Assembly: GCA_021081985.1 (NCBI GenBank)
Contig: GCA_021081985.1_3639.1
Length of the DNA stretch: 64,000 nucleotides
Reading direction: 5' to 3' (one strand)
Origin: a phage
Under the pieces are notes generated by a model. That model was not told the DNA's origin. It was given only the letters and a program-made list of their open reading frames with translations, and did not search any database. Shown in pieces: positions 35,051-48,413 of this stretch; positions within the stretch are counted from its first letter, which is position 1; every line of letters starts with the position of its first letter. Position numbers and translations under genes: made by a program.

Positions 35051-36397
35051 TTGAGTAAAGTATTTGGACCTGCCAGTCCTAAACAAAAAATGATTTTGGA
35101 GAGTAAAGCCCAAATTCTAATAATTGGCGGGGCCGCCGGGTGTTTGTCTAAAGACCACGAGGTGTTGACACCATCTGGCTGGATTAAGATATCAGAATGG
35201 TCAGGACAGGACATTCTGCAATATGATAAAGCCACTGGGGAGGCTAAATTTATCCCTCCTTTAGAGTTTGTTAAACTCCCTTGTGAAAAACTTACAAGAA
35301 TAGAAGGTAATGGTATTTGTCAAGAGCTATCTGACGAACATACTGTGATTTATAAACCAGACTATAAATCACAGCCAAGAACACTTTCTTTTTCTGAAGT
35401 GGCAGAAAGACATAACAACTCTGTTAAAAAAGGTTGGACAGGTAAGTTCATAACTACATTTAACTATGATGGGCCTGGGATAGACATGACAGAAGGGGAA
35501 TTAAGGCTTCAGGTTGCTGTCATGGCTGATGGGAGAGTTGTTAAAGAAGGGAAAGATAATTATACACAGATGCGCTTTGCTAAAAAGCGTAAATATGACC
35601 GCTTAATCGAACTTTGTAAAAAGTTTGGATTAAGATATGAAGATAGAGGATCAAAACCCAGTGAAAGATATACCACTGGGGAACAGTACGAGGTCATTGT
35701 ATGGCCTAAATATCCTGATAAAAAATTTACAGAGAAATACTATCAGTGTTCAAATGAACAACTGGAGATAATACTTGATGAGATTTTTCATTGGGATGGT
35801 TCTTTTTGTAAGCCATATGGCGGTAAAACACATAATAGCTTTACAGGTAGATATTTTACTGCTCATAAGACGAACGCTGATTTTGTTCAGTTTATAGGAT
35901 CTTCTCTTGGTTATAATACCACCATAAGCCATGATACAAGAAGTGGAAAGGACAGTTATACTGTTAATATTATGGCTAGAGGAAAAGGATTAAGGTCACT
36001 GGCTAATAAAGACAGAAAAGCTGAGTTTAAAGAGTTTATACCTACGGATGGGTTTAAATACTGCTTTGTAACACAAACAGGTTTCTTTGTTACCAGACTA
36101 GAAGATTGTGTGGTTGTCACTGGGAATAGTGGAAAATCATATCTCCTACAATTGATGCCGCTTGCTTATGTCGATGACCCGCAGACAGCATGTATAATGT
36201 TTCGTAGGACAACACCTCAATTGACAGGTGCAGGTGGACTTTTTGATACAGCGAAAAGTATTTATTTGCAACTCGATAAGGAATGGAAGCCGAAGTTCAG
36301 GGAGAAAGCTCTGGAAGCAATTTTCCCATCTGGGGCAAAGGTGTTGTGGAGACACATGGAGTATGAGAATAACAAATTAGATCATCAGGGTGAATAG
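35051..36397 (+). CDS. terL: terminase large subunit, 5' exon (ATPase N-terminal part) containing an intein in the Walker A loop
   Basis: TTG start with GGAGG RBS; IIGGAAG/[intein]/SGKSYLLQ reconstitutes a GxxGSGKS P-loop; ORF reaches a stop at 36395-36397, probably intron-derived. Confidence 0.65.
   Translation: MSKVFGPASPKQKMILESKAQILIIGGAAGCLSKDHEVLTPSGWIKISEWSGQDILQYDKATGEAKFIPPLEFVKLPCEKLTRIEGNGICQELSDEHTVIYKPDYKSQPRTLSFSEVAERHNNSVKKGWTGKFITTFNYDGPGIDMTEGELRLQVAVMADGRVVKEGKDNYTQMRFAKKRKYDRLIELCKKFGLRYEDRGSKPSERYTTGEQYEVIVWPKYPDKKFTEKYYQCSNEQLEIILDEIFHWDGSFCKPYGGKTHNSFTGRYFTAHKTNADFVQFIGSSLGYNTTISHDTRSGKDSYTVNIMARGKGLRSLANKDRKAEFKEFIPTDGFKYCFVTQTGFFVTRLEDCVVVTGNSGKSYLLQLMPLAYVDDPQTACIMFRRTTPQLTGAGGLFDTAKSIYLQLDKEWKPKFREKALEAIFPSGAKVLWRHMEYENNKLDHQGE
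35141..36127 (+). mobile_element. intein with LAGLIDADG-like endonuclease domain in terL P-loop (about 329 aa)
   Basis: Starts CLSKDHEVLT (block A-like), ends CVVVTGN followed by +1 Ser; internal LQVAVMADGRVV and ILDEIFHWDGS motifs; boundary codons TGT 35141 and AAT 36125 checked. Confidence 0.6.
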
Positions 36398-37659
36398 CTT
36401 GCCCTTCGTGCCTATAACGGTGGAACTCCCTATGGGAAAATACCGTGCCACAGAATATGGAAATATAAAATCTGGGTGTAACGACTATCTCCGATGAGTG
36501 TAGGAGAGTAGAATCACAAGCGATTGGTGATCCAAACGGCACGCCAAGGATGGAAGATATAGTCTGTTCCACATGGAAACATGTGGCGGGTGTTTTAGCA
36601 CACCGCCTCAGTGTAGCGAACTGAGGGGACAATAAGTTGCAGTATACCTTTATAGGTTTTGATGAGGGTTGGTATTAGCTCTCTTTAAACCTCCCTAATT
36701 GTCGGGGAAACCTTTATTGTTTACATAACCAAGCAAATGTGGTAACATGTTTGTGGCCTACACTAACTATGTAGGGTATGGTAATATCATGTAAAATTAG
36801 GTAATCCGCAGCGAAGCATCCCTATGGGATGAACGTTCAACGACTATCGCTTACGGGCGTTAGGGCCAAGCGGTGAGGGAAACCTCCAGTCTTTCAGACT
36901 GCCGAAATGGGAGGATATTTGCGTAATAATATTAAAAAATGTGTTGACTGCCATAGAGAACTTCCTCTTGATAAATTTTTTCTTTCATCAAAAAGTAGTG
37001 ATGGATATTCTGGAGCTTGTAAAGAATGCTACATGTATTATAGACTTAACAACTCCAGAAAGAATAAGGATATGATTAAGAAAGAGGATGCTGCCATGTT
37101 TATACAAGATTTGGTATCATCTGGTGAACTTTTCGAATGCAAAACTTGCCGTAAGAAGTTTTTAGCTGATAATTTTTATACTAAGAGAGATTATGGTAAA
37201 GTGTATCTTGCAACAAATAGATGTAAAAGATGTGAAAAGTTTTACCAAATAGAGAGAAAGTTTGGCATCTCTGAGGAATATTACTTTTCAATGTTGGAAA
37301 GGCAGGGGTTTAAGTGCGAGATATGTAAAATACCTTTGGAAGATTATAAAAATCAAGGGTATAGAGATTTTTTCTCCGTAGATCATGACCATAAGACAGG
37401 GAAGATTAGAGGTTTGTTATGCGATAAGTGTAACAGGGCTTTGGGATTTTTCGGAGAAAATGAGGAAACACTTTTAAATGCCGCAGAATATATACGCAAA
37501 TATAAGATATAGTCTGGTCTGCATGGTGACATGCAGCAGCACGTAGTGGTGCGGGATAAGAGTAGCGATCTTATCTGAACAAAAACGACACAATTCACAT
37601 GGTCACAGATAGATTATCTGATATCTCGTCTACGTTCAAACTCTAAATATCCGAGCAGG
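36398..37659 (+). mobile_element. putative group I intron in terL carrying an HNH homing-endonuclease ORF (boundaries approximate)
   Basis: 1.26-kb interruption between two terL reading frames; contains aattgtcggggaaacc (P-like, 36667-36682), gggtatggtaata (36774-36786), aatccgcagcg (Q-like, 36803-36813), gttcaacgactat (R-like, 36835-36847) resembling conserved group I core elements recalled from the Tetrahymena and T4 introns. Confidence 0.55.
36907..37512 (+). CDS. HNH (His-Me finger, Endo VII-like) homing endonuclease encoded within the terL intron
   Basis: 201 aa; several CxxC pairs and VDHDHKTGKIRGLLCDKCNRALGFF matching the DHDH...RGLLC..CN motif of T4 endonuclease VII-type nucleases. 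Confidence 0.65.
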   Translation: MGGYLRNNIKKCVDCHRELPLDKFFLSSKSSDGYSGACKECYMYYRLNNSRKNKDMIKKEDAAMFIQDLVSSGELFECKTCRKKFLADNFYTKRDYGKVYLATNRCKRCEKFYQIERKFGISEEYYFSMLERQGFKCEICKIPLEDYKNQGYRDFFSVDHDHKTGKIRGLLCDKCNRALGFFGENEETLLNAAEYIRKYKI

Positions 37660-38700
37660 ATGGTTATCTCTTGTAACCCTGATCCAGATCATAAGATTAA
37701 AGAGTTGATTTCTTGGTATTTAGACGATGAGGGGTATCCTATACCTGAACGTGACGGGGTGATTAGATGGTTTATAAGACGTGACGGGGAGTTTATCTGG
37801 GGTGAATCAGAGCAAGAATTAATTGAAAAGTATTGGGATGGCAAGGATGAGAAAAGAAAGCCTAAACCACTTTCATTTTCCTTCATTTCCGCAACAATAT
37901 TCGATAATCCTCCCATGCTGGAGAATAACCCAGATTATCTAGCATTCCTTGAAGGTCTTCCAGAGGTAGAAAAAGCCCAGTTATTGCATGGAAACTGGAA
38001 CGCAAGACCTGAAGGGGCAAACTATTTCCAGAGATCTTATTTAAAAGAGGTTCCCTGCTTACCTCTCGGTGTTGTATCTGTTCGTCCGTATGATAAAGCA
38101 GGTACAGAAAGAACATCTGGAAACAGATATCCTGACTTTACAGCATCTGTTAAGGTAAGTAAAGACAATGATGGTTTTTACTACTTGTCTGGTGATTATT
38201 GTCCTGAATTTTTTGATGATGGTAGATATTCGACTCAAACGCAGGGAAGATTCTGTAAAAAAGCTGGGGAACGTGATGTTATCATTAAGAAACAGGCTTA
38301 TTTTGATGGTGATGATGTCACCATAATTTTCAGTGTTGACCCAGGACAAGCAGGAATAAGTGAATTTTTAACAAGCTCCCGTGAACTAATAGCGGAAGGG
38401 TTTACAGTAGAAAAAGATCCTACACCAAGCAATAAATCAAAATTAACACGATTCACACCGTTTGCAAAACTTGCTCAAGCAGGTATGGTGAGAATAGTTC
38501 GTGATAGTTTTGATCCTAAAACTTATGAAGCCCTTATGACAGAGCTTGAAAAGTTCAATGGGGAAAGGAGTACTACGACAAGAAAAGACGATTGGGTCGA
38601 CGCCATTTCTTCTGGGATAAATTATCTTGAAAAAGAAGAAATAGTCAAACCTGTTGTTATTCCAAAAATTGTAGCTCCTACCTTGTATAAAAGAATATAA
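37660..38700 (+). CDS. terL: terminase large subunit, 3' exon (Walker B and nuclease domain); true exon start may lie slightly upstream
   Basis: ELISWYLDDEG Walker-B-like (hhhhDDE) soon after start; acidic residues consistent with RNase H-like nuclease domain; track coordinates used. Confidence 0.65.
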   Translation: MVISCNPDPDHKIKELISWYLDDEGYPIPERDGVIRWFIRRDGEFIWGESEQELIEKYWDGKDEKRKPKPLSFSFISATIFDNPPMLENNPDYLAFLEGLPEVEKAQLLHGNWNARPEGANYFQRSYLKEVPCLPLGVVSVRPYDKAGTERTSGNRYPDFTASVKVSKDNDGFYYLSGDYCPEFFDDGRYSTQTQGRFCKKAGERDVIIKKQAYFDGDDVTIIFSVDPGQAGISEFLTSSRELIAEGFTVEKDPTPSNKSKLTRFTPFAKLAQAGMVRIVRDSFDPKTYEALMTELEKFNGERSTTTRKDDWVDAISSGINYLEKEEIVKPVVIPKIVAPTLYKRI

Positions 38701-42430: not shown

Positions 42431-43444
42431 ATGGCAGCAGTACAGACTAACGACTTTCAAATCGTAAACCTTGGCGCAGCACTGGAACTTGTTCCACGTC
42501 AGTATCGCCTGATTACCAACATGGATCTGTTCACCGCTTACCATGGTGAAACCACAATTGCTCGTGTTGAGCGTGTTGACGAAATTGTTGCGGATATTCC
42601 TGCACGTCGTCGTGGTGGAGAACGTAACTATGTGGGTAGTGAAAAAGCTCAAATCAAGAACTTCAACATTCCGTTCTTCCCTCTGGATCGTCAGATCACT
42701 GCGGCAGATGTTCAGAACTTCCGTAAATATTTCACTACGGACGCTCCGAGAACTGTTGAAGACGTAGTTGCTCGCGTAGTTAAGCGTATTCGCGTTTCTC
42801 ATGAACAACTGAAAGAAAAAGCAATGGTTCAGGCAATCATGGGTAAATCATGGTCTCCACAAGATCCGACCGCACAGTACAACTACTTTACCGAGTGGGG
42901 AGTTACCCAGCATACTGCCAATATCGACTTCACAGATGTCGCTGTTGACCCGTCTGATCTGATTGAAAAAGACGCTCGTGCATACATCATCGACAATGCA
43001 GGTGATAACGGCAATAACTACAATATCATTGTTCTGGCTTCTCGTAAATGGTTCTCTGCTCTGATCGCCCATCCGCTGATCATGAATGCATACCAGTATT
43101 ATTCTTCTACCCAAGAGCCGCTGCGTCGTCGTCTGGGTATGGGTTCTGAGAATGCCAACAACCGTATGTTTGTTCATAAGAACGTAACCTACATTGAAGA
43201 CATCTCTGGATATATCCCAGATGGTGAAGCATACATCCTGCCGCAAGGTATTGATGATATGTTCCAGATCCACTATGCTCCGGCAGATGATGTTCGTGAA
43301 GCAAACACTGTAGCTGAAGAACTGTATCTGTGGTACAAATCTTCTGCATATCTGCGTGAAGAGAAAGTTGAATCTGAAACTTCCTTCTTGACGGTTAACA
43401 CCCGTCCTGAACTGGTTGTGCGTTCTACTGGTACTTTCGCATAA
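42431..43444 (+). CDS. major capsid protein (lambda gpE-like)
   Basis: 337 aa, strong RBS AAGGAGA, codon usage biased toward highly-expressed codons (CGT, CTG, GGT), followed by strong terminator. Confidence 0.7.
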   Translation: MAAVQTNDFQIVNLGAALELVPRQYRLITNMDLFTAYHGETTIARVERVDEIVADIPARRRGGERNYVGSEKAQIKNFNIPFFPLDRQITAADVQNFRKYFTTDAPRTVEDVVARVVKRIRVSHEQLKEKAMVQAIMGKSWSPQDPTAQYNYFTEWGVTQHTANIDFTDVAVDPSDLIEKDARAYIIDNAGDNGNNYNIIVLASRKWFSALIAHPLIMNAYQYYSSTQEPLRRRLGMGSENANNRMFVHKNVTYIEDISGYIPDGEAYILPQGIDDMFQIHYAPADDVREANTVAEELYLWYKSSAYLREEKVESETSFLTVNTRPELVVRSTGTFA

Positions 43445-43575: not shown

Positions 43576-44085
43576 ATGGCAAATCAAAATTATCGTATTT
43601 TCCCTAATAAAGTGGAACTGTTTAAGTTTTTCGGAGCATATGCACCACAATTGAATGCAGCGGTATCTGCAAGACTGCCTTTGAATGGTTTATGTGTGGG
43701 AACACAACACAAAGCATTCAGAAACACTGTTGAGTTTTTCACTGCTCTTGCTGAGATGTCTGGTCTTGATGTTGATGCACAGCACTCTACTATTCGTATG
43801 GGATCTTATATCGTGTTCTTCAACAAAGATATCCCTAGCCCAAATAGTATGGGTAAGGTAGTTGATGCCAAGATTGTAGAAGTGCAAGATAAAAAGGATG
43901 ATAAAGAAAATCTATCTATTGACCTGATTTTAGAGGAAGCAATGTCTCTGAATGATGAAGCTGATAAAAAAGGTAGTAAAGATAGATTAGTTGAGTTTGC
44001 ACTTTCTAAAGGTGTTACACTGACTAAGAACAAATCCTTTGAAAAGATGATTGCTGATCTTAAATCTGAATTAGAAGCATTTTAA
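43576..44085 (+). CDS. hypothetical structural protein
   Basis: 169-aa ORF with AAGGAG RBS. Confidence 0.3.
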   Translation: MANQNYRIFPNKVELFKFFGAYAPQLNAAVSARLPLNGLCVGTQHKAFRNTVEFFTALAEMSGLDVDAQHSTIRMGSYIVFFNKDIPSPNSMGKVVDAKIVEVQDKKDDKENLSIDLILEEAMSLNDEADKKGSKDRLVEFALSKGVTLTKNKSFEKMIADLKSELEAF

Positions 44086-44112: not shown

Positions 44113-45366
44113 ATGACAGCAACAACAGGTGTTGGTGGTTTAATTTATGGTCGTGCATTGGTTGACCAGAAGACAGGAAAGAAAATAAATTTTGATGAAC
44201 TGGGTGGCGGGAATATTCCAGAAGATATAACAGATCTTATTGCATCTAAAGCCCCAATAGAAAGCCCTTCATTTACAGGGAACCCTCAAGCACCAACACC
44301 GTTGGATGATGCTATTGGAAAGGAAATAGCTAATGTAGAATATGTGAGGGGTTTAATTGCAAAATTGGCTGACTCAGCGCCTGAAACATTGGATACTCTC
44401 AATGAATTAGCGAAGGCATTAGGTGATGACCCTAACTTTGCGACAACCATAACTAACGCTCTTGCTGGTAAACAACCATTGAGTGAAATACTGACATCTT
44501 TGTCAGGATTGATTACTGCTGGAAATAAACTAGCTTATTTCAGTGATAAAAACGTAATGGCTTTGGCAAATCTCTCCGCTGTTGGTCGAGTTATCATAGG
44601 GCAAGACTCAAAAACTGGTGTTCTCGATTATCTGGGGATAAAAACCGCTGCCGCAAAAGATGTACAAAGGGATATCTACGATACCACAGAAGGGGTGGTA
44701 TCTTTACCAGGGGCATTTGGTTTTGGTGCGTTTTTTCCTACGGAGAAAGAAGTTGTTTTTCAAGAGAAGAATGGGCCAGAGGAATGGGTTTCTTGGTTGA
44801 GAAGTGCACAACCTGGTCGCTACCTTGTTCGCCAAGATTTACCTTCAGGTGGCACACCTATTATTAAAGGGATTACTGCTTTCAAAGGTATGGTTGAGGT
44901 ATTGTCACCATATCCAGCAGAGAATGCAGAGCAGGCAGCAAAAAATAGTAAACATGCCTATTTTTATGGCATAAATGGGGAGTTGTACCATTATCGCTTA
45001 CTGACTATTTTTGCCAATGGTGACTGGGTGAATATAAAAGGGCAATTCTCTTCTTTGCAGTCTACGGTAGGCAATTCTTGGGGGAGTCCTGATGTTGGAG
45101 GAATAATGTTAGGAGTGTATCTTGGCGCTTCAGACACTGATTCAAACAGAAAACTTGTTCGTGGTCAGACTATCCCAGGATCCCGCATAGGGTGTATAAC
45201 TCTTTACAGCAAAGTTTCCGCAACAGGTGCATATCAAAGTACACCAGTTTCTGTTACACACAGTACTGAAACACAGAGAGGTACGTTTATAGCCTTATCC
45301 GGTTCACCAAGCAATAGTAATGGTACTGATACAGGTTATATTGGCCTTTTTATGAGGATTGCATGA
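44113..45366 (+). CDS. tail fibre protein
   Basis: N-terminal ESPSFTGNPQAPTP motif typical of phage tail-fibre N-termini; contains one copy of the PGAFG..PGRY repeat domain. Confidence 0.55.
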   Translation: MTATTGVGGLIYGRALVDQKTGKKINFDELGGGNIPEDITDLIASKAPIESPSFTGNPQAPTPLDDAIGKEIANVEYVRGLIAKLADSAPETLDTLNELAKALGDDPNFATTITNALAGKQPLSEILTSLSGLITAGNKLAYFSDKNVMALANLSAVGRVIIGQDSKTGVLDYLGIKTAAAKDVQRDIYDTTEGVVSLPGAFGFGAFFPTEKEVVFQEKNGPEEWVSWLRSAQPGRYLVRQDLPSGGTPIIKGITAFKGMVEVLSPYPAENAEQAAKNSKHAYFYGINGELYHYRLLTIFANGDWVNIKGQFSSLQSTVGNSWGSPDVGGIMLGVYLGASDTDSNRKLVRGQTIPGSRIGCITLYSKVSATGAYQSTPVSVTHSTETQRGTFIALSGSPSNSNGTDTGYIGLFMRIA

Positions 45367-45935
45367 TGCTAGATATTAAAGATATCAAGTCTCCACAGTA
45401 TCTTCTTAATGGCGACGTTGATTGTCTGGTACTTTTTGATGGTTTTTCTGATTATCTTCCATACACCGCTTCCAGCAACGACTATAGTGAAACTGGGAAA
45501 GCAGTTTGGGATTCCTTACAGTCTGGTAATTTTGGGGAGATTGCCCCGTATGTAGTAAACCCTCAATTTATCGAGGCATTAAAGCAACAGATGTTATCAG
45601 AAATAAAAGAGTGGAGAAAACTGGAAGAAAGCTCTACAGCTATTGTTTCTTATAATGGTGCAAGGTATGATGTCAATAATGCAACCCTTGGTCGTATTTA
45701 TCCAGTATTATTAGCACAAAAAGCATCCTCGGCTAGACAAGCTGTGGTTTGGAGAGATGTTGATAACAAACCTGTAGAGATGAGTAGCTCTGAATTTGAA
45801 AATCTTGTTGTAGCTATGTCTTCCGAGTTGGCAACTAAGAATGATTCAATATACATCAAGCAACGAGAAATGAAAGATCAAGTGCTTTCAGCCTCTACGG
45901 TTGAGGAATTACAAAGGATAAAAATTGGGTGGTAG
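45363..45935 (+). CDS. tail fibre assembly protein (putative)
   Basis: 190 aa, ATGA-coupled directly after a tail fibre gene. Confidence 0.4.
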   Translation: MMLDIKDIKSPQYLLNGDVDCLVLFDGFSDYLPYTASSNDYSETGKAVWDSLQSGNFGEIAPYVVNPQFIEALKQQMLSEIKEWRKLEESSTAIVSYNGARYDVNNATLGRIYPVLLAQKASSARQAVVWRDVDNKPVEMSSSEFENLVVAMSSELATKNDSIYIKQREMKDQVLSASTVEELQRIKIGW

Positions 45936-47716
45936 CTATGGATTATAAGGATAAAGTTGTCAATGCTGAAGTCATACTTCCAGATGGGCATAGTATTGGA
46001 GGATCAGGACTCCCAAGCCAATCTTTTAAATTATACACAGAAGACACCGCGACCATAAAACTTTCAGGTAATGGTGAAAAAGCAACACCACTTAAAGGTG
46101 TTGTTGTGGTGGCAGAAGATGAAAATAATGCTCTCCAAGCTGGAGATAATGGGTTAGCTGTTAAGGTTAGCCCTGCTGCAAATAACCTGTTGGAGTTGAA
46201 ACAAGGGGCATTATATGTAACAGCGCCCGAAATAAATATCCCTATATCTCCTAAAGAAGGAAATGCTTTAACAAATCTGACTTCTGAAGGTGAAGAGGGG
46301 TTGTATGTTGCACCTACCAAAGTACAAGGATGGCTTTATGATCCTGCGCCTGGTGTTGCAGCTTTGCCTGGAGCTTTCGGCTACGGAATGACAAATCCTG
46401 GAGCAATTTCACTTATTGCTTACAGTCTTGGCGATGTTGCACGTTCTGCCCATAACCTACACCCAGGTAGGTATTATACTTTCACCACACGATCTGAGGA
46501 AATGACCGGAATAACAGAAATTATCTGGCTGGATAATGGCTGGGGCGACAAAACCAGCCAGACAGCAACAAAGCTGGTTCTGTTTTTTGGAAAAGACGGT
46601 CGTATGAAGTATACAATCCGTGGCGACAATCCAAGGGAGCCAGCAGTGTGGTATGATTTGTTAACTGCCAAACAAGCGAATATTCATGATCGCACGGCTG
46701 GTGTTGCAGCCATACCGGGAAGTTTTGGGTACGGTATGGCAGCGAGCGATGGTGTCACCTTATCGTTGCTAAACATTGATGAGATCGCTTCTCTTGCTAA
46801 TCAGACCATGCCGGGGAGGTATTATGCCCATATACAATTCCCAGCAAACTCTGGCGTATTTGAAATAATATGGCTAGATAATTGGCAAAATGATAAAACT
46901 TCAGCAACGGCAAGTAAATTGATCTTGTTTTATGGCGCGGATGGTAGTGTTAAGTATACAATTAGAGGCTCAGACCCTAGTACCCCTGTTTCCTGGGTAG
47001 ACCTTGGAGGAAGTTCTGCCACCTATTCACTATCTATCGGCACAGTTTCCTCTTTGGAAAGTGGGCAACAGGCAACCGCATCAATAACTGGTGATTCTCC
47101 TTCACAAGTTCTTAACTTAGGTATCCCTAAGGGTGCTGATGGACAAACAATAAAATCTGTTAATGCTGTTGTTAAAGAAATAGACAGTGCACAACAGGTA
47201 ACACTGACTTTTACAATGACAGATGATTTAAGTCAACAGGCGAGCTTTAATATCCCATTTTCTCCTCAGCCGACTATGAAGTTGTCAGCAACATCTGGGA
47301 ATTTCTCTTTCAATTATAGCGATACACCTTCAGCGAAAAAAGCAGCGGGGAGATCTGGGTCTTCTATATATTTGAAAACAACAGTTGATCTGAACAGATC
47401 AACTGCTGGCAGTACAGATGTTATGGTGGATGTTCGTTTGACAGAGATACCTTGTACGGAAGACGGTACGTATCTTGATTATGATATCTATGCAGAATAC
47501 CCAAGTGTTGTCGGGTCAGGGCAACCCACAGTGGCTGTATGGCTTATTCTACCAACAGTTCCCACGCATACCATTGATCCCAAGACGAAGACAATAACTA
47601 AACTTCTTCGTGGTGATGGTTTATCAGGACTTAATGGAATCATTCCTATTGCAGGTGCAGACGAACAAGTCCACGAATTTAAATATTTCTTGCAATATTC
47701 TTATCTGAACAACTAA
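45929..47716 (+). CDS. tail fibre / receptor-binding protein with tandem internal domain duplication
   Basis: Two about 110-aa repeats (ALPGAFGYGM..PGRYYTFT..EIIWLDNGWGDKTSQTATKLVLFFGKDGRMKYTIRGDNP and AIPGSFGYGM..PGRYYAHI..EIIWLDNWQNDKTSATASKLILFYGADGSVKYTIRGSDP). Confidence 0.55.
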   Translation: MVAMDYKDKVVNAEVILPDGHSIGGSGLPSQSFKLYTEDTATIKLSGNGEKATPLKGVVVVAEDENNALQAGDNGLAVKVSPAANNLLELKQGALYVTAPEINIPISPKEGNALTNLTSEGEEGLYVAPTKVQGWLYDPAPGVAALPGAFGYGMTNPGAISLIAYSLGDVARSAHNLHPGRYYTFTTRSEEMTGITEIIWLDNGWGDKTSQTATKLVLFFGKDGRMKYTIRGDNPREPAVWYDLLTAKQANIHDRTAGVAAIPGSFGYGMAASDGVTLSLLNIDEIASLANQTMPGRYYAHIQFPANSGVFEIIWLDNWQNDKTSATASKLILFYGADGSVKYTIRGSDPSTPVSWVDLGGSSATYSLSIGTVSSLESGQQATASITGDSPSQVLNLGIPKGADGQTIKSVNAVVKEIDSAQQVTLTFTMTDDLSQQASFNIPFSPQPTMKLSATSGNFSFNYSDTPSAKKAAGRSGSSIYLKTTVDLNRSTAGSTDVMVDVRLTEIPCTEDGTYLDYDIYAEYPSVVGSGQPTVAVWLILPTVPTHTIDPKTKTITKLLRGDGLSGLNGIIPIAGADEQVHEFKYFLQYSYLNN

Positions 47717-47726
47717 GGGGATAATT

Positions 47727-47984
47727 ATGGCAACAACAGGTGTGGCTGGTAAAGTATATGCATCAAGCCTTGTTGATATAAAAACTGGAAAATCTGTGAA
47801 AATCGAAGATATTATTGCTGGAGGCTCAGATAGCTATGTTCTTCCAGCGGCTACGGAATCAGTATTAGGAGGTGTTAAGAAAGCACAAACACAAGCAGAT
47901 TCTGTGGCTTCAGATGTCTCTACGTTGGTCAACGATTTTAATGCTTTGCTTGCCAAGTTGAAAGCCGCTGGTATTATGTCGTGA
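47727..47984 (+). CDS. short paralogue of tail-fibre N-terminal domain
   Basis: MATTGVAGKVYASSLVDIKTGKSVKIEDIIAGG parallels MTATTGVGGLIYGRALVDQKTGKKINFDELGGG of the fibre at 44113. Confidence 0.35.
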   Translation: MATTGVAGKVYASSLVDIKTGKSVKIEDIIAGGSDSYVLPAATESVLGGVKKAQTQADSVASDVSTLVNDFNALLAKLKAAGIMS

Positions 47985-48015
47985 TAAAAAAGACCCTTCG
48001 GGGTCTTTTTATTTT
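47985..48015. terminator. bidirectional intrinsic terminator
   Basis: aaaaaAGACCCttcgGGGTCTttttatttt; A-run on one side and T-run on the other; convergent genes on both sides. Confidence 0.6.
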
Positions 48016-48413
48016 AGGAGTTCCTGTACTCCTTTATTCAAATTTGCATTAATATACGGTTCACGCCCATTCTTATAGAAAGTACAGATGTATTTCCCAG
48101 TGTAAGATTTTTTTCCTGAGATAATTGCGACATCATCAAAATATTGATATGCTTCTGCTTGCTCTGCAATTCTGCCTTCAAAGCCTGATGACACAACAAT
48201 CACGTCTGGTTTAAATGCTTCTCTGAATCTCTTATCGCAAGATAATTGTACAATACGGCTAATTGCCTCATCTTTTTCTTCTGGTGACAACCAACTTGCC
48301 TCGACAGATTTATAATCATTAATGTCTGGGTTATTTTTCACATATTGGAGAGTCCCCGCTGCAATAACAGCACAGACGCACAGACCAATTGTAATTTTTA
48401 AAATATTTTTCAT
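48009..48413 (-). CDS. reverse-oriented secreted/lipoprotein-like protein (moron candidate)
   Basis: 134 aa on minus strand inside plus-strand structural module; N-terminal KITIGLCVCAVIAAG signal/lipobox-like sequence. Confidence 0.45.
   Translation of the reverse strand: MKNILKITIGLCVCAVIAAGTLQYVKNNPDINDYKSVEASWLSPEEKDEAISRIVQLSCDKRFREAFKPDVIVVSSGFEGRIAEQAEAYQYFDDVAIISGKKSYTGKYICTFYKNGREPYINANLNKGVQELLK

Follow-up and report, generated by a model that had tools for sequence, protein, structure and literature searches.

We analysed a stretch of 64,000 nucleotides (nt; hereafter the window) of contig GCA_021081985.1_3639.1, from the phage assembly GCA_021081985.1, and describe four adjacent genes within it, here named A, B, C and D, that occupy positions 44113-47984. 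Judged by DNA similarity, the phage is an Avunavirus-like Escherichia coli myophage of the subfamily Vequintavirinae: the region is ~93% identical in DNA to Escherichia phages vB_EcoM_TH18, 18-1-2, 19-1-2 and 24-2-1, and 92% identical, with 81% of the query covered, to Av-05 (Vequintavirinae, Avunavirus). The four genes form a hypervariable, co-transcribed cassette of fibre genes, flanked by the capsid gene on one side and the neck genes on the other, and we consider it probable that this cassette, which closes the head-gene transcription unit at its 3' end, combines two attachment modules with interchangeable distal parts. A first-pass annotation of the window had delimited the four open reading frames (ORFs) correctly; they and their parts are the following.

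44113..45366, + strand: gene A, ORF of 417 amino acids (aa), by its sequence a chimeric fibre; match to phrog_2636, tail fibre (E=1.2e-84)
44113..44220, + strand: anchor peptide of A, residues 1-36 (MTATTGVGGLIYGRALVDQKTGKKINFDELGGG), from the D-orthologue hidden Markov model (HMM) and a shuffle test
44227..45363, + strand: distal cassette of A, residues 39-417, with a collar (SPSFTGNP..), a helical DTLNELAKALGDDPNFATT segment, a knob-like repeat and a C-terminal tip
44674..45042, + strand: third repeat copy (r2/r3 subtype), A residues 188-310
45363..45935, + strand: gene B, 190 aa, DUF4376 (PF14301, 43.3 bits against a cutoff of 25); probable start 45366
45929..47716, + strand: gene C, ORF for the large fibre of the slot, 595 aa from GTG
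45938..46318, + strand: N-terminal attachment domain of C, residues 4-130, conserved among the large fibres of the slot
46334..46678, + strand: repeat copy 1 (r1 subtype), C residues 136-250
46682..47023, + strand: repeat copy 2 (diverged r1 subtype), C residues 252-365, within the block that differs from Av-05
47024..47716, + strand: distal part and tip of C, residues 366-595 (..SLSIGTVSSLESG..LNLGIPKG.. small domain, then a C-terminal domain ..FKYFLQYSYLNN)
47727..47984, + strand: gene D, small head-fibre-type protein of 85 aa, PF11133 (Phage_head_fibr)
47727..47831, + strand: anchor peptide of D, residues 1-35
47835..47981, + strand: phi29 gp8.5-like C-terminal motif of D, residues 37-85 (LPAATESVLGGVKKA...LLAKLKAAGIMS)

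The genes are tightly packed. The stop codon of A overlaps the start of B (ATGA), and D starts 10 nt past the stop of C. Homologues of C, among them a 593-aa TH18 protein with 94% identity, begin with MDYKDK, so that the true start of C is likely the ATG at 45938 (592 aa), which sits 2 nt beyond the stop of B.

The link between A and D lies in their N-termini. D had been described at first pass as a duplicate of the N-terminus of A, a likeness that is limited to the first ~33 residues (BLAST E~1e-6): residues 1-36 reach a local score of 81 against a shuffle mean of 20.4 (z=14.2, none of 5000 shuffles as high), and for the remainder of D compared with A, z is 2.2. With an HMM made solely of D orthologues from other phages, A is recovered at E=7.4e-11, and no further ORF falls below E~4 among the 2745 six-frame ORFs. 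Both proteins carry, from residue 1, the motif M-A-T-x-G-V-x-G-x-(V/I)-Y-x-x-x-L-(V/I)-D-x-x-T-G-K, and both genes have the position typical of the anchor family, between the major capsid protein and Inh genes on one side and the adaptor gene on the other. The anchor of A is 68% identical over 28 aa to the head fibre of Erwinia phage Hena1 and 45-48% identical to that of the adjacent D, which argues that it is not a fresh local duplicate.

Beyond the anchor, D resembles proteins of phage heads. Its residues 17-85 match PF11133 with 64.2 bits (cutoff 24.6, E=1.7e-17) at profile positions 210-277 of 277, and the N-terminal capsid-binding base and helix-turn-helix shaft of the full-length architecture are absent. 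Sequence matches in the PDB are the phi29 capsid fibre (6qvk, E=5e-10; 3qc7, 4e-9), crAss001 (7qof, 5e-9) and B2 gp45 (9d82, 9e-9), all of them capsid-attached proteins. In these comparisons D residues 25-85 match the C-terminal ~50-60 residues of phi29 gp8.5, crAss001 gp21/gp29 and B2 gp45, and the size of D (85 aa) is near that of crAss001 gp21/29 (97 aa) and B2 gp45 (99 aa); unlike in those head fibres, however, the N-terminal half of D is unrelated, and D does not have the first ~200 residues of phi29 gp8.5. Full-length orthologues of D were found in 65 phage records, with 66% identity in the Seunaviruses PVP-SE1 and SSE121, 53.5% in Mydovirus and 40% in the Henunavirus Hena1, and also in 4MG and Raoultella phage Ro1. 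The gene is conserved in Avuna-, Seuna-, Mydo- and Henunavirus, and genes at the corresponding position occur in Certre- and Septuagintavirus; D reads as the core gene of the slot, conserved in at least five genera, and as the ancestral bearer of the anchor, and A as the derived chimera.

In public data the anchor stands in front of at least eight types of cargo. When 1.84 billion representatives were scanned exhaustively by HMMER with the A/D anchor, 20 proteins of 62-587 aa reached E<=1e-3; in most of them the match starts within the first six residues, and three repetitive proteins match best at internal sites. The cargo in this set includes other Stf-type tips, collagen and two further tip types, and D-type tips. 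A word-indexed search with the anchor alignment gave 7 short proteins only. The N-terminus of the phiTE_217 product of Pectobacterium phage phiTE (pTE217), MAAIGGTSLGLVTGYAIMDQETGQVKTISELFEGG, matches the D/A anchor profile over 30 columns (hhalign probability 88%, E=2.9e-6). BLAST of phiTE_217 against A reached only E=0.017, and a narrow D-only HMM did not retrieve it; the case for homology is made by the profile-profile match together with a bridging sequence, P0123, in which a D-like anchor is fused to a phiTE_217-type body, and not by sequence search alone. The phiTE-type anchor is in turn fused to collagen in P0124-P0126. Like D, pTE217 is encoded by the last gene before the terminator and the adaptor gene and has a homologous N-terminus of ~30 residues; its C-terminal body (~40-164) is unlike either D or A. 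A metagenomic protein of 122 aa, P0137, joins an A-type anchor to a short piece similar to the coiled coil near the N-terminus of prophage Stf and to the last ~60 residues of a C-type tip; either it is an extreme product of recombination with deletion, or the assembly created a chimera.

A is 93.5-93.8% identical in aa to the 'tail fiber protein' of TH18 and Av-05. Its residues 42-416 align end-to-end with prophage fibres, of which they cover the last ~380 aa at 39-47% identity (E as low as 1e-100), and the match runs to the final residue in both proteins. The system concerned is the prophage Stf-type fibre with a PF08400 N-terminus followed by a DUF4376 gene, as found in Rac-region, lambdoid and P2-like elements (e.g. 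WP_000117760.1 with WP_000701877.1, or tail3 with tail4 of phage Rac-SA53). A has the homologous distal shaft, knob repeat and tip, and B is the counterpart of the DUF4376 partner. Unlike the prophage fibres, A and C are without the PF08400 attachment N-terminus and the PF03406 repeat, in place of which they have Vequintavirinae-specific N-terminal modules, and A-C sit in the head module of a lytic myophage. Neither A nor C had any Pfam match, and hence no PF08400, a domain that a prophage fibre scores at E=4e-61. By its sequence relationships, A is a chimera of a D-type 33-aa anchor and the complete distal part of a prophage tail fibre. Many of the side tail fibres of E. coli and Salmonella prophages are named 'shikimate transporter' in NCBI/nr (P0023, P0033, P0036, P0041 and others), evidently a misannotation that has been propagated.

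B is 38-40% identical to the DUF4376 gene lying immediately 3' of prophage Stf-type fibres, where the arrangement is the same. Alteromonas phage V22 provides a precedent: gp27 was established by experiment as a fibre chaperone, and its only homologues carry DUF4376 (PMC7289586). As in V22 gp26/gp27, where gp27 is required for a functional fibre, a gene of ~190-200 aa immediately follows the fibre gene; the fibre served differs, and the likeness to V22 rests on DUF4376 and on gene position. By analogy, B is likely an intermolecular chaperone of A. Given the end-to-end match of A to prophage fibres, the DUF4376 identity and position of B, and the V22 precedent, A and B look like one imported unit, a distal fibre with its chaperone, placed on a local N-terminus.

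The second attachment module is carried by C. Its residues 5-127 are 52% identical to EspYZU12 ORF60 (E=1e-29) and residues 5-69 are 46% identical to GAP31_203 (E=7e-12), with weaker matches of this domain to phiTE_215 (E=4e-9) and A5-4_224, so that C has the conserved N-terminus of ~130 aa that characterises the large-fibre family of the slot (GAP31_203/phiTE_215/phrog_3904). In the Pfam scan a collagen-like Gly-X-Y shaft (PF01391) was found in GAP31_203 and none in C. Residues 105-343 are instead 48% identical to the mid-part of a prophage fibre (E=1e-65). The distal part and tip had no Pfam or PDB sequence match, and a PDB sequence search with the whole of C was likewise empty. In the Av-05 record (NC_025830.1, 8024-11814) the C gene is present as two ORFs of 545 aa and 115 aa, by frameshift or sequencing error; synteny in that record breaks just upstream of A, where an opposite-strand DprA-like gene replaces the capsid genes, and the record is a 'circular' sequence of 120.9 kb against 133.9 kb for TH18. 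The break may be an assembly artefact or a real rearrangement.

At first pass, two tandem copies of one domain had been noticed in C and a third copy in A, and both observations are borne out by pairwise alignment and HMM statistics; these and the shuffle test of the anchor exclude chance or low complexity as the source of the similarities. C residues 142-244 and 258-359 are 50% identical (protein alignment, E=9e-32), with HMM borders at 136-250 and 252-365. A residues 185-320 are 27% identical to C 249-371 (BLAST E=5e-8), and an HMM from both C copies finds A 188-290 at E=5.8e-6. The copy in A belongs to another subtype (r2/r3), with 21-28% identity to the C copies and 37-39% to prophage r2/r3. 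No Pfam family covers the domain in our Pfam scan. C matches 406 database proteins; among the 120 listed, most are 'prophage tail fiber N-terminal domain-containing' proteins of ~1030 aa (PF08400 + PF03406) and a few are P2-type tail-collar fibres. Three repeat copies occur both in the Rac-region prophage fibre WP_000117760.1 and in tail3 of phage Rac-SA53. These matches assign the repeat domain and the whole distal part of A to the tail-fibre pool of enterobacterial prophages.

The two copies in C differ in their affinities. Copy 1 is 67-68% identical in aa to repeat 1 of Rac-type prophage fibres and 92% to copy 1 of Av-05; in DNA it shares 78-81% of 241 nt with Rac-type prophage fibres and 90% of 152 nt with Rac-SA53, and 41 complete E. 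coli genomes match it. Copy 2 has 46-50% aa identity with copy 1, against 42-43% with prophage r1 and 31-32% with r2, and in DNA the two copies have 67-76% identity in short patches only. Comparison of the copy-to-copy with the copy-to-prophage identities indicates that the tandem pair is old and that copy 1 was exchanged with the prophage pool comparatively recently. For the two-repeat segment of C, AlphaFold2 predicted one compact strand-helix-four-strand (beta-alpha-beta4) domain per repeat, at a predicted local distance difference test score (pLDDT) of 60-80 (mean 64.2; ~80 for copy 2); full-length C, modelled from a 45-sequence alignment, had a mean pLDDT of 39.7 and gave an unusable model. 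The structural neighbours of the predicted repeats are weak and nearly all are phage or pyocin fibres, namely knob or shaft domains of Mu S (8ju3), R2 pyocin (6cl6/6cu2), T4 gp34 (5nxh) and the phi812/phi11 receptor-binding proteins; the Foldseek neighbours in BFVD are mostly phage tail-fibre proteins. The repeat may be read as a knob or bead within the shaft of a trimeric fibre, by resemblance and not by membership.

Relatives of the cassette record how such parts are exchanged. Within the cassette, the sole block that has diverged from Av-05 is 46737-47083, which corresponds to copy 2; Av-05 has an r2-type copy and a collar there. Metagenomic relatives of C retain the N-terminal domain and the tip and vary in the repeats, which are a single r2 (~530-547 aa), r1 + r2 + collar (~650 aa), or r1 + r1' as here. 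The C-type tip also occurs on an A-type anchor, in the metagenomic proteins P0020, P0021 and P0135. P0021 (587 aa) follows A up to '..VVSLPGAFGFG' and continues as a P0002-type C protein (83% identity over 404 aa), the crossover falling inside the conserved PGAFGFG motif of the shared repeat. P0020 (464 aa) joins the A anchor to collar repeats and to a tip of C type (95% to P0005). On the contigs of both proteins the cassette consists of a single fibre gene and D; B and the N-terminus of C are gone, deleted by recombination between A and C. These natural A×C recombinants show, at the level of sequence, that the shared repeat and collar motifs are real recombination substrates, and the same tip evidently works on either attachment module. 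Of the recent recombination or domain shuffling proposed at first pass, the shuffling is strongly upheld by the prophage pool, the A×C recombinants and the Av-05 block, and its breakpoints are mapped, but a recent tandem duplication is not compatible with copies that are 46-50% identical in aa.

The slot between the Inh-like gene and the adaptor gene is filled differently across the Vequintavirinae. In rV5-type Vequintavirus it is without a fibre gene, and the Inh-like gene is followed directly by the adaptor gene. In Mydovirus it holds D alone and the converging membrane-protein gene described below. Hena1 (Henunavirus) has D and an 858-aa putative exopolysaccharide (EPS) depolymerase that starts with MATTGSGGVVYATKLVDLKTK..., the same anchor; this gene (MN732867.1, 6333-8909) thus places a head-fibre anchor at the start of a putative depolymerase in a head-module slot. 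In the Seunaviruses GAP31 and EspYZU12 the slot holds a large fibre, whose C-type N-terminal domain (46-52%) is joined to a shaft that is collagen-like or of another kind, followed by a protein of 214 aa and by D. The same three-gene layout occurs in phiTE and A5-4, and the last gene of A5-4 encodes a 527-aa collagen fibre with an anchor-like N-terminus. The cassette of the window agrees with those of Seunavirus (GAP31_203-205, PVP-SE1, EspYZU12 ORF60-58) and of Certre- and Septuagintavirus (phiTE_215-217, A5-4_224-226, W70_131-129) in its slot, in the C-type N-terminal domain and in the anchor of the last gene. It differs from them by the additional anchor-bearing A and the DUF4376 gene, where they have a collagen-like large fibre and a middle gene of 211-216 aa, and C carries prophage-type knob repeats where their large fibres carry collagen. 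Mass spectrometry of phage W70 showed all three proteins of its slot to be part of the virion (PMC11370258).

The middle protein of 211-216 aa, for which no Pfam family was found, lies between the large fibre and the gene in D position in Seuna-, Certre- and Septuagintavirus (loci L006 5392-6036, L008 5343-5987, L013 7724-8374 and L014 6659-7294). W70 virions contain it (W70_130), and the window lacks it; there the gene ahead of C is B (DUF4376). The protein may serve the large fibre as chaperone or adaptor.

The neighbouring genes place the cassette at the end of a run of head genes. On the + strand the order is portal, protease/scaffold-type genes, decoration protein, major capsid protein, Inh-like gene and A-B-C-D; 3' of the cassette come a converging - strand membrane-protein gene, the adaptor gene (48541), neck, head-closure and tail-terminator genes, and the sheath gene (50696). 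The flanking features are as follows.

38716, + strand: portal gene
42431..43444, + strand: major capsid protein gene
43576..44085, + strand: gene for a 169-aa Inh-like protein
47987..48015: bidirectional intrinsic terminator-like hairpin (AAAAAGACCC-TTCG-GGGTCTTTTT, then TATTTT), read by eye from the sequence

On the + strand the hairpin closes the unit behind D, and on the - strand it closes the converging gene; in phiTE a terminator is annotated at the equivalent site, 3' of phiTE_217. A scan of the sequence for promoters and terminators gave sites no more frequent than in shuffled sequence. The converging gene (48009-48413, - strand), which uses the bidirectional terminator too, encodes a predicted membrane protein of 134 aa and has its own promoter-like site, TTGACA-16-TAAGAT, at 48468-48441. 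It is kept at the same spot in Seuna-, Mydo- and Avunavirus (phrog_11434, 'moron' category); its TH18 label 'adenosine deaminase' is unsupported, with no Pfam match.

In this arrangement, module 1 is the ~33-residue anchor peptide, with D and its phi29-gp8.5-type C-terminus as the ancestral bearer; A joins this module to the collar, helical segment, knob-like repeat and tip of a prophage fibre, the DUF4376 gene B having been imported alongside. Module 2 is the ~130-residue N-terminal domain of C, common to the large fibres of Seuna-, Certre- and Septuagintavirus, to which two tandem knob-like repeats of the prophage family and an unrelated tip are attached. Close relatives differ in the number and subtype of these repeats.

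For the docking site, the closest indications come from solved or mapped virions. In phiTE, pTE217 ranks fifth in abundance among the virion proteins and has been assigned to an unmodelled, hexamer-centred 'Pagoda' density, which is without symmetry at the contact, as expected of a trimer on a sixfold site (PMC11972413). B2 gp45, a decoration protein of 99 aa, forms homotrimers at quasi-sixfold axes (PMC11654681). Taken together with the head-fibre C-terminus of D and its co-transcription with the head genes, these assignments make capsid hexamers the most likely docking site of D, a placement that we regard as having good odds; for A, placed on the capsid by the homology of its anchor, we judge the chances to be even. 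The anchor would dock trimers on hexamer centres and D would be a head fibre, with A as a head-displayed Stf-like adhesin whose tip would be folded by B and whose reversible, low-affinity binding to the host surface would help to set host range. The wider proposition, that the ~33-residue anchor is a general hexamer-centre docking peptide by which non-rV5 Vequintavirinae display interchangeable host-recognition cargo on the head, is more tentative and falls a little short of even chances. Equally tentative is the list of such cargo, which would include the D tip, the Stf-type adhesin A with B, the Hena1 EPS depolymerase and the collagen-like fibres of A5-4/SSBI34 type. Head fibres mediate the first host contact in phi29 and phiCbK. 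Phage 7-7-1 is a further precedent for such contact (PMC12796354).

Several points weigh against docking on the capsid. Stf-like tips and EPS depolymerases are classically tail-borne. The homology of D to solved head fibres concerns its distal half and excludes the anchor, and the link between phiTE-type and D-type anchors consists of the 30-column profile match (88%), synteny and one bridging sequence. The capsid assignment of pTE217 is itself putative, being based on abundance and not on a built model, and phiTE bears an unassigned third fibre at the baseplate (PMC11972413).

These points lend some weight to a conventional view, in which A, C and D are tail fibres that use the anchor and the C-type N-terminal domain to attach to the baseplate or to a further tail fibre, in a branched network as in other Vequintavirinae, and whose genes lie in the head module by happenstance. 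A and C are annotated publicly as tail fibres, their PHROG matches read 'tail fiber', and the distal cassette of A and the repeat domain derive from true tail fibres; moreover, the anchor-bearing protein of Hena1 is a putative EPS depolymerase, the same tip is found on both anchor types, and the third, unmodelled baseplate fibre of phiTE is described as 'previously annotated in the genome'. Against this stand the head-fibre C-terminus of D, the oldest and most conserved anchor bearer, whose solved relatives are all on capsids; the abundance of the phiTE counterpart, far too high for the baseplate and assigned to hexamer centres; the presence of D in Mydovirus without a large fibre from which to branch; and the co-transcription with head genes, with a terminator ahead of the neck genes. 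We therefore consider this alternative unlikely, though it is the strongest of those weighed, and the name 'tail fibre' given to the module at first pass is unproven, gene position and anchor homology favouring the head at least equally.

The position of the cassette directly 5' of the adaptor, neck and head-closure genes would also suit neck or collar whiskers (fibritin-like) at the head-tail junction, and A residues 55-148 match PDB 9d93, the 'tail collar fibers gp4' of podophage B2 (E=2.5e-12). However, the gp4 match is merely the widespread DTLNELAAALGDDPNFATT fibre motif, the words collar and whisker are absent throughout the text of the phiTE structural paper (PMC11972413), and the 6-12 sites of a neck are incompatible with the abundance of pTE217, which makes whiskers very improbable. 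Refuted by the conservation of D across genera, and hardly credible, is the first-pass view of D as a recently truncated N-terminal duplicate of A, and of the repeats as a recent duplication within the genome: A and D do have their first ~33 residues in common and the C copies are adjacent, but D is full length, conserved across genera and endowed with its own head-fibre C-terminal Pfam domain, the two anchors are 45-48% identical with that of A nearer to an Erwinia phage, and between the copies in C protein identity is 46-50% and DNA identity slight.

A mosaic receptor-binding locus, or tail-fibre mosaicism, is in itself ordinary. What is new, in that neither the annotations nor the literature covered contain it, is that a 'head fiber' gene and two 'tail fiber' genes make up one cassette, that this cassette has two portable attachment modules, one of them common to a protein assigned to capsid hexamer centres, and that lytic Vequintavirinae refill it from the tail-fibre pool of their hosts' prophages. 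The portable anchor common to a head-fibre gene and to tail-fibre-like or depolymerase cargo is the noteworthy aspect. If the anchor docks on the capsid, it would constitute a natural high-copy display site for adhesins and depolymerases, of use in host-range engineering and phage display; the Hena1 depolymerase would be head-borne, many 'tail fiber' annotations in the subfamily would be wrong, and the reported broad host range of Av-05 would be explained in part. The cassette would then encode a swappable, head-borne receptor-binding layer that trades parts with the tail fibres of resident prophages, for which the natural A×C recombinants mark the exact cut-and-rejoin points.

Two further features of the window lie outside the cassette. 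The large terminase is seemingly split (35051-38700): ORF 37660-38700 holds the end of Terminase_6N and Terminase_6C, and is separated from the upstream ORF 35051-36397 by a 201-aa ORF of Endonuclease VII type (36907-37512). In rV5_ev168 the terminase is annotated as joined (two-piece) with an endonuclease VII gene inside, and by this comparison the arrangement suggests an intron or a homing-endonuclease insertion. GC skew changes sign at ~22 kb, being negative over 1-22 kb and positive beyond, which is consistent with genes changing orientation from the early to the late part of the genome.

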